Shown here: piece after piece, positions 2,887-4,560 of the stretch | Position numbering within the stretch: the first letter of the stretch is position 1 | How the letters are laid out: every line of letters starts with the position of its first letter | Assembly: GCF_024298765.1 (NCBI RefSeq) | Contig: NZ_CP101210.1 | Origin: Escherichia coli | Lineage (GTDB): Bacteria > Pseudomonadota > Gammaproteobacteria > Enterobacterales > Enterobacteriaceae | Length of the DNA stretch: 64,000 bases | Direction: 5' to 3' (one strand) | Made by a program: the position numbers and the translations under genes | The notes under the pieces: model-generated | Seen by the model: only the letters and a program-made list of their open reading frames with translations | Told to the model about the DNA's origin: nothing | Databases searched by the model: none

Positions 2887-4560
2887 ATGAATTCACCTGT
2901 CGCGGCATGTTCAGCGACCAGCGCCGGACAGAAATATCGCTTTTTCTCAATTATTATGAAAATTAATCTTCCGTTCATACACTGGTCACGGATTAGCAAT
3001 GATAAGCGCCTCGTGTTATCAGTGGTTGTCTTTACCCTTTCTAATCTCCTTGTATCCTCAGGAGCGCATCTGATTTACCGGATATTATTCTTTATCCTGG
3101 CACTTCTTATTATTAAGGCAATGAAATCGATTACGTTGCGTTTGATTCTTGCCTTCCCGTTCACATTACTGACTGCTGCAGATATCAGTATCAGCCTGTA
3201 TTCATGGTGTACATTTGGCACAACATTTAATGATGGTTTTGCAATCAGTATCCTTCAGACAGATCCTGATGAAGTAATAAGAATGTTCAGGATGTATGTT
3301 GTTTATGTTATCGCATTTATTATCCTCTTTTTATTGTTCTTCTGTTCAGCAATAAATAAAACGTCCTCATTGCCATCGGAAAAGGTCACGGTAATTACAT
3401 TTTTATTGTTAATTACAGTAACGTTATATTCTTCCTTCCAGTTTGCGTTGAAGAAACAGTATCAAATAAATGAAGTTGATCCTTACATAGTCGCTTCCCG
3501 GTTTGCCACATATACCCCTTTCTTTAATCTGAACTATTTTGCACTGGCCGCAAAGGAGCATCAGAGATTAATGACGATTGCTGATACCATACCTCACTAC
3601 GATCTGGTGATTACGGATAACAACACTGACGTATTTGTTCTGGTGATTGGTGAATCTGCAAGGACTGATAACATGTCCATTTACGGGTATTCGCGCCCTA
3701 CCACACCAGAGCTTCAGAAACAGAAATCACGACTGAAACTGTTCACTCAGGCAATCAGTGGCGCACCTTACACCGCGCTGGCTGTTCCACTGGCGTTATC
3801 TGCCGATAGTGTACTGCATCATGATATCCGTAATTACCCTGATAACATTATCAACATGGCGAATCAGGCGGGGTTCGATACCTGGTGGCTCAGTGCGCAG
3901 TCCGCTTTCCGACAGAACGGAACGGCTGTGGCCAGTATCGCCATGCGGGCCAGAAACAGAATTTATGTCAGAGGCTATGATGAGTTACTGCTCCCACACC
4001 TGGCTGAAGCACTGAACAGTAATCCGGGGAGCAGGAAACTGATTGTTCTGCATCTGACGGGCAGCCATGAACCGGTTTGCAGTAACTGGCCCAGAGATAA
4101 AGCCGTGTTTAAACCGCTGGATACAGAAGAAGTCTGTTACGATAATTCCATTCATTATACCGACAGTTTGTTGGGACAGGTTTTCACCATGCTGGAAACG
4201 CGTCAGGCATCCGTCATGTATTTTTCAGATCACGGTCTGGAGTATGACCCGACAAAAGAACATGCCTATTTTCATGGTGGAATAAAACCCAGTCAGCAGG
4301 CTTATCATGTTCCGATGTTTATCTGGTACAGCCCGGCACTGGGAGAGCATGTCGATCGCCAGACGGTGAACAGCGTTTTTTCCACTGCGTATAATGATTA
4401 TCTGATTAATGCATGGATGGGCGTAACCAGACCGGCTCAACCGAAAACGCCGGAGGAGGTGATTACCCGCTGGCAGGGGAAATCCGTGGTTTTTGATGCC
4501 AGTCATAACGTGTTTGATTACAAAGTATTACGAAAGAACTTTAATGAACTCCAGGAATAA
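2887..4560 (+). CDS. Phosphoethanolamine transferase, sulfatase superfamily (EptA/YhbX/MCR-like): N-terminal multi-TM domain plus periplasmic catalytic domain
   Basis: N-terminal hydrophobic helices; motifs VLVIGESARTDNMSIYGY, HLTGSHEP and FSDHGLEYD typical of lipid A/LPS PEtN transferases; AT-rich coding sequence; alternative start at 2956 (MKINLPF) possible. Confidence 0.75.
   Translation: MNSPVAACSATSAGQKYRFFSIIMKINLPFIHWSRISNDKRLVLSVVVFTLSNLLVSSGAHLIYRILFFILALLIIKAMKSITLRLILAFPFTLLTAADISISLYSWCTFGTTFNDGFAISILQTDPDEVIRMFRMYVVYVIAFIILFLLFFCSAINKTSSLPSEKVTVITFLLLITVTLYSSFQFALKKQYQINEVDPYIVASRFATYTPFFNLNYFALAAKEHQRLMTIADTIPHYDLVITDNNTDVFVLVIGESARTDNMSIYGYSRPTTPELQKQKSRLKLFTQAISGAPYTALAVPLALSADSVLHHDIRNYPDNIINMANQAGFDTWWLSAQSAFRQNGTAVASIAMRARNRIYVRGYDELLLPHLAEALNSNPGSRKLIVLHLTGSHEPVCSNWPRDKAVFKPLDTEEVCYDNSIHYTDSLLGQVFTMLETRQASVMYFSDHGLEYDPTKEHAYFHGGIKPSQQAYHVPMFIWYSPALGEHVDRQTVNSVFSTAYNDYLINAWMGVTRPAQPKTPEEVITRWQGKSVVFDASHNVFDYKVLRKNFNELQE

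Follow-up and report, generated by a model that had tools for sequence, protein, structure and literature searches.

To our knowledge, YhbX (b3173, "putative hydrolase/transferase YhbX") is the only phosphoethanolamine (PEtN) transferase family paralogue of Escherichia coli K-12 to which no acceptor has been assigned, those of EptA, EptB, EptC, OpgE and, in the wider superfamily, BcsG having been solved. The literature that mentions yhbX yielded nothing functional, and no substrate or activity data were found for any member of the YhbX family. Among the characterised relatives, OpgE (YbiP) is a PEtN transferase of osmoregulated periplasmic glucans, EptC (CptA) acts on heptose-I of the LPS core, and EptA (PmrC) and the mobile enzymes MCR-1 to MCR-13, which modify lipid A phosphates, combine five TM helices with a sulfatase fold, zinc ligands and a threonine nucleophile. 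Enzymes of this kind are also encoded on islands inserted at tRNA genes. Saile et al. name YjgX among the PEtN transferases of tRNA islands, and putative PEtN transferases, "YjgX or YhbX", have been described at all of the pheU, pheV and selC insertions analysed (PMC6174562).

Here, a stretch of 64,000 nucleotides of an E. coli chromosome (NZ_CP101210.1), referred to as the window, is examined with respect to one such gene. The gene is very likely an intact accessory paralogue of yhbX that forms part of a conserved module near the integrase of pheV/pheU islands, and its product is a predicted zinc-dependent enzyme of the inner membrane.

Gene and island context

The coding sequence of the YhbX-like PEtN transferase family protein, identified from the open reading frame list, its translation, a RefSeq match and its identity to K-12 YhbX, spans positions 2887–4560 on the + strand and comprises 557 codons from an ATG start. 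The product is identical to WP_025492097.1, which carries the RefSeq name "phosphoethanolamine transferase", and the locus has 100% matches in many E. coli chromosomes among the RefSeq genomes; annotations and a published report of the island gene already exist. The start given at 2887 in the annotation is doubtful, because homology to YhbX starts only at residue 42 and because a variant protein, P0002, which is 88% identical to the island protein, starts at the equivalent of Met24. The true start is probably Met24, at position 2956, which would yield a protein of 534 residues.

Neither of the two ATGs (2887 and 2956) has a clear Shine-Dalgarno sequence, and no convincing promoter was found for the transferase gene, consensus sites being no commoner than in shuffled sequence. 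A degenerate search for a PmrA box gave no site in 1593–4097, and the matches across the window equal chance expectation. The sole consensus site that is plausibly meaningful is a GC-rich hairpin at 4616–4638 (no strand assigned), inside the 143-bp gap that separates the convergent genes for the transferase and a tetratricopeptide-repeat (TPR) protein; this hairpin, a candidate from a consensus scan in which such sites in the region are not above shuffled sequence, may be a terminator. The first-pass annotation had called the gene markedly AT-rich compared with the core genes. Its GC content is indeed low (44.0%, GC3 46.8%) relative to the core part of the window (17–64 kb, 50.6%), but the core paralogue yhbX is equally AT-rich (43.1%; K-12 eptA, eptB and eptC have 49.5–50.4%), which makes low GC a family trait and, by itself, no proof of recent transfer.

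The gene lies within the island at pheV (tRNA-Phe), and a P4-type integrase is encoded 10 kb away. That the island bears an integrase, as had been proposed, is borne out by the tyrosine recombinase gene at 14744–15958 (− strand; open reading frame list, RefSeq) and by the tRNA-Phe gene pheV, the attachment site of the island, at 16105–16180 (− strand; ARAGORN, RefSeq). The transferase gene is accessory: of 5426 complete E. coli genomes, 454 have it at full length. Beyond tRNA-Phe lie the core genes yqgA, speC and nupG. Downstream of the transferase, the convergent TPR gene (4704–5723, − strand; RefSeq and copies in other loci) has 83–95% identical copies in two further loci (L009 and L016) and in the CFT073 locus (L018), and belongs to what is conserved near the integrase in pheV/pheU islands.

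Upstream, a gene at 2637–2834 (+ strand; sequence, RefSeq CDS, tblastn) encodes a 65-residue protein with two hydrophobic stretches. It lies 52 nt from the transferase, has a strong AGGAG ribosome-binding site, and is found beside the transferase in four other loci (93.8–95.4% identity), being absent by tblastn at the locus with the Bunzi context (L019). The cargo farther upstream is on the same strand (663–2497, +; PADLOC, NCBIfam, RefSeq) and consists of a 523-residue protein (663–2234) and an 88-residue YkgJ/YcgN-type Cys-cluster protein (2231–2497), whose genes overlap by 4 nt. The former matches the PADLOC model PDC-M40B (E = 1.3e-42) and is named "ATP--cob(I)alamin adenosyltransferase" in RefSeq; the latter gives weak NCBIfam YcgN matches and is called "YkgJ family" in RefSeq at locus L009.

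The order OMP, cargo, transferase, integrase and tRNA-Phe is found at both pheV and pheU, and H-NS paralogue genes lie within this module. The transferase directly flanks a variable slot, which is occupied here by a WYL regulator, PDC-M09A and PDC-M40B (PADLOC) and, beside the 88% identical variant, by the Bunzi genes BnzA and BnzB (E = 1e-189 and 1e-201). A type I restriction-modification system is located farther upstream (RefSeq). The transferase protein itself matches no PADLOC model, and it was rejected as a member of a defence system on this ground.

Domain architecture and active site

The island protein has the modular architecture that had been read from its translation. The N-terminal membrane domain (residues 41–186; 3007–3444, + strand) contains five hydrophobic segments, delineated by a hydropathy scan and modelled as long helices by AlphaFold. 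The periplasmic sulfatase-fold catalytic domain (residues 250–497; 3634–4377, + strand) is identified by the Pfam Sulfatase family (PF00884, E = 6e-50), by column comparison and by Foldseek, and contains all three of the motifs that the first-pass annotation had quoted, GESARTDN (255–262), HLTGSHEP (389–396) and DHG (448–450). The Pfam family EptA_B_N (PF08019) gives a sub-threshold match (E = 0.069, 13.5 bits). The AlphaFold model (pLDDT 91, pTM 0.90) was matched by Foldseek to full-length NmEptA (5FGN) and MCR-1 (9NWW) over 518–534 columns, and to the periplasmic domain of EcEptC (6A82, TM 0.76). EptC is the best-scoring solved structure both by fold and by sequence (5ZZU, E = 1.7e-24). Together, the membrane segments, the Sulfatase domain and the fold support membership of the PEtN transferase superfamily (YhjW/YjdB/YijP/YbiP family, COG2194).

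Column-by-column comparison with MCR-1, MCR-3, MCR-9 and EptA, EptB and EptC aligns residues E256, T296, H389, H394, D448, H449 and H463 with E246, T285, H390, H395, D465, H466 and H478 of MCR-1. In this alignment E256 corresponds to a zinc ligand and T296 to the nucleophile, and the Glu, Asp and His zinc ligands are conserved. The H478 equivalent is kept in EptA, EptB, the MCR enzymes and the YhbX clade, and is missing from EptC and OpgE. In OpgE and the island protein, Leu or Gln replaces the Glu that follows DHG (MCR-1 E468). By alignment with 5FGN, T125 and E129 in the periplasmic helix segment take the places of T110 and E114, which bind PE in Neisseria EptA, and the donor-site N106 of NmEptA is replaced by Ser121; the donor-site Glu is kept in at least 90% of 60 YhbX-family sequences. 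The surroundings of the nucleophile differ from those of the lipid A enzymes. According to PMC10525099, two disulfides, DB1, with the Cys that flanks the nucleophile, and DB4, are shared by every class I lipid A enzyme. The island protein has SGAPYT, without the DB1 cysteine, in place of the SCGTxT of EptA, MCR and EptB, and its catalytic domain contains a single Cys pair, C398/C417, roughly at the position of DB4.

By homology to NmEptA and MCR-1, the predicted enzyme would be placed in the inner membrane with its zinc-dependent active site facing the periplasm. Thr296 would attack the phosphate of phosphatidylethanolamine, forming a covalent PEtN-enzyme intermediate with departure of diacylglycerol, and PEtN would then be handed to an acceptor in the envelope.

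Relationship to YhbX and other PEtN transferases

The island protein is 65% identical to K-12 YhbX over 516 residues, and 19–23% identical to EptA, EptB, EptC, OpgE and MCR-1, with another alignment giving at most 28% for EptA, EptB, EptC and OpgE. Among 1.84 billion cluster representatives, the best match is the YhbX cluster (65%), and those of the next ones (42–45%) that were traced to organisms come from Buttiauxella and Mixta. The YhbX-family genes of these two genera are solitary and lie in unrelated housekeeping contexts, and their neighbourhoods were set aside as a source of clues to the substrate. K-12 YhbX and the island protein have length and architecture in common, as well as the motifs SGAPYTAL, GSHEPxC, DHGLE and FHGG, and a GC content of 43–44% in both genes. 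The main differences between them are the location of the gene, secG-leuU-yhbX-argG for yhbX and pheV/pheU for the island copy, and its distribution, near-core for yhbX (about 95% of genomes) and accessory for the island copy (about 8%). In addition, the two proteins differ at 35% of residues, which may entail a different acceptor specificity or regulation. The syntenic YhbX proteins of E. coli and E. fergusonii are themselves only 69% identical.

A neighbour-joining tree (Kimura distances, 27 sequences, 300 bootstraps; built without Lpt3, Lpt6, PetG, PptA and BcsG) unites the island alleles with E. coli and E. fergusonii YhbX in one group at 100% bootstrap. OpgE/YjgX-like enzymes come out as the sister group of the YhbX family with only 81% support, and EptA, MCR-1, MCR-3 and MCR-9 form with EptB a separate clade (99.7%) without the island protein. 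The NCBIfam models agree with this placement, in that all score the island protein (38–163 bits) far below their cut-offs (404–1250). The top match, a generic domain model named "phosphoethanolamine--lipid A transferase", reaches 163 bits against a cut-off of 500; the EptA models give 137 bits against 561 and 98 against 660, and those of MCR-1 to MCR-13 give 38–67 bits against 1075–1250. EptB (112 bits against 493) and CptA (146 against 404) are on separate branches as well. Thus the proposed assignment to the EptA/MCR family stands at the level of the PEtN superfamily and falls for the family proper, in which membership was rejected on the tree, the model cut-offs and the absence of the DB1 cysteine. 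EptB, EptC/CptA and OpgE were likewise rejected, with scores below cut-off for EptB and CptA, 19–23% identity and separate branches. EptC/CptA is the second-best NCBIfam model, yet it is 23% identical and on a long branch of its own, and OpgE, the glucan enzyme of the sister clade, is 21–28% identical to the island protein.

YjgX-type genes occupy an equivalent integrase-proximal position in the K-12 leuX and CFT073 pheV islands. Orthology to yjgX was rejected: the K-12 yjgX region is matched at 31% identity over 256 residues and the CFT073 pheV pseudogene at 32%, in both cases over the catalytic domain. The CFT073 pheV copy is of the YjgX type and a different gene from the island transferase. 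These two pseudogenes are 52–55% identical to a protein of plasmid pO26_H19, which falls with OpgE in the tree. A yjgX mutant appears as a false positive in a peptide-susceptibility screen.

A full-length core yhbX is present in 5159 of the 5426 genomes, about 95%, and the island gene is therefore an extra copy. In strain SM107, a pheV region that is 99.2% identical to positions 1–27978 of the window coexists with yhbX at secG-leuU-yhbX-argG. The island location and this separate syntenic yhbX make the island gene a paralogue or xenologue rather than an orthologue. Placement with a core gene of known non-resistance function had been named beforehand as the outcome that would count against the lipid A reading; the gene does prove to be a paralogue of a core gene, but the function of yhbX is not established.

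In E. coli, 633 genomes have matches to the island gene, at 696 places in total, all chromosomal. About 179 of these 633 genomes hold fragments only; the gene is frameshifted in SC422, and a 75-nt stub is all that is left of it in EC190486. Such frequent loss or breakage indicates that selection for the gene is not universal. Four intact alleles, with dS of 0.05–0.21, have dN/dS of 0.18–0.20, and a value of about 0.19 indicates long-term purifying selection on the protein. Carriage by plasmids or phages was rejected. One of 72,556 plasmid records carries the gene (94% identity), a doubtful 62-kb circle in which neither a replicon nor a relaxase was typed, and 50,697 phage records contain no YhbX-type gene, the best match being 32% identical.

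Acceptor and role of the island enzyme

On the basis of the tree, with OpgE as sister enzyme, a periplasmic or surface glycan, or an LPS site other than the lipid A phosphates, appears the more likely acceptor, and a lipid A phosphate, as in EptA and MCR, the less likely one. That the enzyme is a lipid A PEtN transferase, which would make lipid A less negatively charged and the cell less susceptible to polymyxins and cationic peptides, was implied by the first-pass annotation and is highly improbable. This reading draws on the superfamily fold, the full-length structural alignment to NmEptA and MCR-1, the complete catalytic set including the H478 equivalent, and the name of the top NCBIfam model. 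However, the score for that model is far under its cut-off and the MCR scores are lower still, identity to EptA and MCR-1 is 19–21%, and the protein lies outside the EptA/MCR/EptB clade and lacks the DB1 cysteine. The gene, unlike the MCR genes, is confined to the chromosome in E. coli genomes, and no PmrA-box-like site precedes it. Deletion of eptA is reported to abolish PEtN modification of lipid A in K-12 despite an intact yhbX. A connection with lipid A and polymyxins, as had been implied, finds no support in the YhbX placement, the missing cysteine, the lack of plasmid mobilisation or the upstream region.

Two further explanations are both unlikely. The transferase might be surface-remodelling cargo that adds PEtN to LPS outer core, O-antigen, ECA, capsule or a surface protein and so alters phage adsorption or host recognition, by analogy with serotype-converting O-antigen modification genes. 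Consistent with such a role, it directly adjoins the slot of defence and candidate-defence genes (PDC-M09A and PDC-M40B, Bunzi in the variant) with the type I system beyond, the YhbX group diverges unusually fast (69% between E. coli and E. fergusonii), as is typical of phage- or host-facing genes, and some PEtN transferases are known to act on O-antigen, core or protein (PMC10525099). This argument is purely one of context. The transferase is a conserved flank outside the variable cargo, matches no PADLOC model, is without counterpart in the phage records and has solitary relatives in Mixta and Buttiauxella. To about the same low degree, the gene might be an irrelevant passenger, silent (for example, H-NS-repressed) or decaying, that persists only by hitchhiking next to the island's integrase end. 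Its frequent truncations, frameshifts and IS insertions point that way, as do a GC content of 44%, typical of H-NS-bound DNA, the H-NS paralogue genes of the module, the failure to find a clear promoter or ribosome-binding site, and the core paralogue already in the genome. Against this stand the purifying selection over alleles with dS up to 0.21, the fully intact catalytic residues and the full-length reading frame in 454 genomes.

A bolder version of the reading as an accessory yhbX paralogue is put forward as an improbable speculation, namely that the acceptor of the island enzyme is unlike those of all characterised PEtN transferases. It might be a sugar of the outer core, O-antigen, ECA or capsule, or a surface protein, and its modification might change how phages adsorb or how susceptible the cell is to host peptides. 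If this were true, the enzyme would work in partnership with the defence hotspot that it flanks and would offer a way into the function of the YhbX clade.

Nothing in the analysis supports polymyxin resistance for the island gene. Sequence screens may flag it as "MCR-like", and it should be kept out of lists of colistin-resistance determinants. What the comparisons describe is a second, diverged and selectively maintained copy of a YhbX-type enzyme in about 8% of E. coli, including ExPEC, APEC and STEC islands. Expression of the island copy is a convenient way to ask what the YhbX clade does, and if the gene altered the cell surface, it would be relevant to phage therapy, to serum and peptide resistance, and to the biology of these islands.

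Relationship of the island transferase to YhbX

The transferase gene occupies positions 2887-4560 (+) of the window (557 codons by ORF list and translation) and is annotated in strain SM107, which is 99.2% identical to window 1-27978, as WP_025492097.1, a "phosphoethanolamine transferase"; over its first 8 kb, the window matches many complete E. coli chromosomes at 100% identity. The first-pass annotation observed this ORF correctly. The motifs it quoted are found at residues 255-262, 389-396, and 448-450, and the AT-richness it described is real (44.0% GC versus 50.6% in the core part of the window). 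The annotated start at 2887 is doubtful, because homology to relatives opens near residue 42 and an 88%-identical variant starts at the residue corresponding to Met24 (window position 2956).

The proposed membership in the EptA/MCR family was wrong, since the protein groups with YhbX, scores below all NCBIfam cut-offs, and lies outside the EptA/MCR/EptB clade. No named NCBIfam model comes near its curated cut-off: the generic lipid A phosphoethanolamine (PEtN) transferase domain model gives 163 bits (cut-off 500), CptA 146 (404), the EptA models 137 (561) and 98 (660), EptB 112 (493), and MCR-1 to MCR-13 38-67 (1075-1250). In BLASTP against the K-12 paralogues, YhbX shares 65% identity across 516 residues, and EptA, EptB, EptC, and OpgE share only 25-28% in partial alignments. 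Beyond the protein's own 90% cluster and one cluster containing the 88% variant, all matches in a collection of 5.8 billion proteins are YhbX from E. coli, Shigella, or E. fergusonii (65-66%). In a library of 1.84 billion representatives, the YhbX cluster is likewise best and the next representatives are at 42-45%; representatives traced to organisms include Mixta (45%), Buttiauxella (42%), Microvirgula (38%), and Proteus (34%). The Mixta and Buttiauxella members lie in mutually unrelated neighborhoods that give no clue to function. Identity as YjgX, the other PEtN transferase type on tRNA islands, was rejected at 31% to the K-12 yjgX region.

In a neighbor-joining tree (519 trimmed columns, Kimura distances, 300 bootstraps), the island alleles group with E. 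coli and E. fergusonii YhbX (100%), OpgE and a YjgX-like plasmid protein form the sister of the YhbX family (81%), and EptA, MCR-1, -3, and -9, and EptB form a separate clade (99.7%). EptA/MCR-type lipid A enzymes carry SCGTxT beside the nucleophile, whereas the YhbX group has SGAPYT and lacks that cysteine, which forms the disulfide DB1, described in a 2023 review as conserved in all lipid A-specific enzymes (PMC10525099). The island gene is thus an accessory paralogue of yhbX, already annotated and previously noted: putative PEtN transferases "YjgX or YhbX" were reported at all analyzed pheU, pheV, and selC insertions (Saile et al. 2018, PMC6174562), and yhbX is among the genomic-island genes, alongside pagN, hsdS, and int, listed in a 2025 study of poultry E. 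coli.

Predicted fold and active site

The Pfam Sulfatase domain spans residues 250-497 (E = 6e-50), and a hydropathy scan places five hydrophobic segments within residues 41-186. AlphaFold, given 60 family sequences, yields a confident model (pLDDT 91, pTM 0.90), whose top matches among solved structures are the periplasmic domain of E. coli EptC (TM 0.76), full-length Neisseria EptA (5FGN), and MCR-1 (9NWW), the latter two aligning across 518-534 columns. In the multiple alignment, E256, T296, D448, and H449 occupy the positions of the MCR-1 Zn ligands and nucleophile (E246, T285, D465, and H466), and H389, H394, and H463 those of its auxiliary histidines (H390, H395, and H478). T125 and E129 match T110 and E114, with which Neisseria EptA binds PE. 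With these residues and fold matches, the protein looks catalytically competent. By homology, phosphatidylethanolamine would donate PEtN to Thr296 as a covalent intermediate, from which it would be handed to an acceptor. The protein is probably an active PEtN transferase, and its acceptor is probably not lipid A. The first-pass interpretation stands for superfamily and island and fails for family, and the suggested polymyxin and cationic peptide phenotype is unsupported. No function is described in the literature searched for YhbX or for its Proteus homologue PMI3040, and YhbX goes unmentioned in the 2023 review (PMC10525099), which covers eleven substrate classes of PEtN transferases. Upstream of the gene, no PmrA-box-like site was found, nor, in a consensus scan, a convincing promoter.

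Distribution and divergence

Of 5426 complete E. coli genomes, 454 hold a full-length island gene and ~179 more hold fragments; every copy in these genomes lies on the chromosome, with nucleotide identities of 90-100%. A full-length core yhbX is present in 5159 of the 5426, and SM107 carries both genes, making the island gene an additional copy. Among four intact alleles, dN/dS is 0.18-0.20 with dS up to 0.21, which shows that these old, diverse alleles have long been under purifying selection. Gene decay is frequent as well: the SC422 copy is frameshifted, and that of EC190486 is a 75-nt stub.

K-12 yhbX is similarly AT-rich (43.1% GC), and YhbX of E. fergusonii, encoded at the syntenic secG-leuU-yhbX-argG position, is only 69% identical to that of E. 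coli (L023 6001-7596 versus K-12 locus L003 3989-5614), far below the usual orthologue identity between these species. The YhbX group as a whole is thus fast-evolving, with low GC as a family trait, and the 69% identity suggests that the "core" gene has diverged rapidly or undergone allelic replacement.

The island transferase is in none of the phage records, and plasmid carriage is seen in 1 of 72,556 records. This record, CP057032.1, is a 62,375-bp circle labeled as a plasmid that has no replicon or relaxase and carries a 94% allele with MFS, GGDEF, TPR, and AraC island genes. Excision of the island as a circle could account for it, as could an error of assembly.

Island setting and the adjacent variable slot

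The integrase-bearing island described at first pass was borne out by attachment at tRNA-Phe (pheV, 16105-16180, ARAGORN) and a P4-type integrase ORF (14744-15958). By RefSeq annotation, the interval between transferase and integrase holds IS remnants, a TPR protein gene, and a raffinose-type sugar operon (7003-14594, - strand; carbohydrate porin, GH32 hydrolase, MFS transporter, alpha-galactosidase, and LacI-type repressor), flanked by the IS remnants on one side and the integrase on the other. The pheV islands of SM107 and MS15046 and the pheU islands of STEC313 and SC422 share a gene order: Tia/Hek-like outer-membrane protein, WYL regulator, 359-aa protein, 523-aa protein, YkgJ-like protein, 65-aa membrane protein, PEtN transferase, TPR or MFS genes, integrase, and tRNA-Phe. 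The 65-aa protein (2637-2834, +) contains two hydrophobic stretches; its gene, which has a strong AGGAG ribosome-binding site, ends 52 nt 5' of the transferase gene. The protein is kept at 93.8-95.4% in four other loci and is missing from L019, the metagenomic contig carrying the 88% variant. In the CFT073 pheV island, a YjgX-type pseudogene (L018 6390-7391; 32% to the window protein) is cut off by an IS66-family element beside a TPR gene 85% identical to that of the window, so two unrelated PEtN transferase types share the integrase-proximal position in different islands.

Two further low-GC segments of the window are without counterpart in SM107. The first (27979-31189; 3.2 kb, 41-45% GC), inserted between yggM and hemW, encodes TRAP-transporter-like large (28034-29335, -) and small (29335-29847, -) membrane subunits and a periplasmic binding protein (29883-30869, -). 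The second (50713-51966; 1.25 kb, 41% GC), between tkt and cmtB, holds a 302-aa ORF (50758-51666, -) whose translation looks like an SPFH/band-7 (prohibitin-like) protein.

Upstream of the transferase, PADLOC matches candidate-defence families: a WYL-domain regulator (comparison locus L001, 18592-19488) precedes the 359-aa protein (PDC-M09A, E = 3.5e-22; C-terminal part at window 1-616, full gene at L001 19537-20616) and the 523-aa protein (PDC-M40B, E = 1.3e-42; 663-2234). The RefSeq name of the latter, "ATP--cob(I)alamin adenosyltransferase," looks like a misannotation. Beside the 88% variant, a Bunzi system (L019 2654-5820; BnzA 8e-189, BnzB 2e-201) replaces the WYL/PDC-M09A/PDC-M40B/YkgJ set of window 1-2834. 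The slot, bounded by the Tia/Hek-like and PEtN transferase genes, thus differs in content between strains, which suggests a defence-system hotspot within pheV/pheU islands, with the transferase as its conserved flank. This position permits, and does not demonstrate, a surface-remodeling role. The residual value of the gene lies in its membership in the uncharacterized YhbX clade and in its position beside this suggested hotspot.
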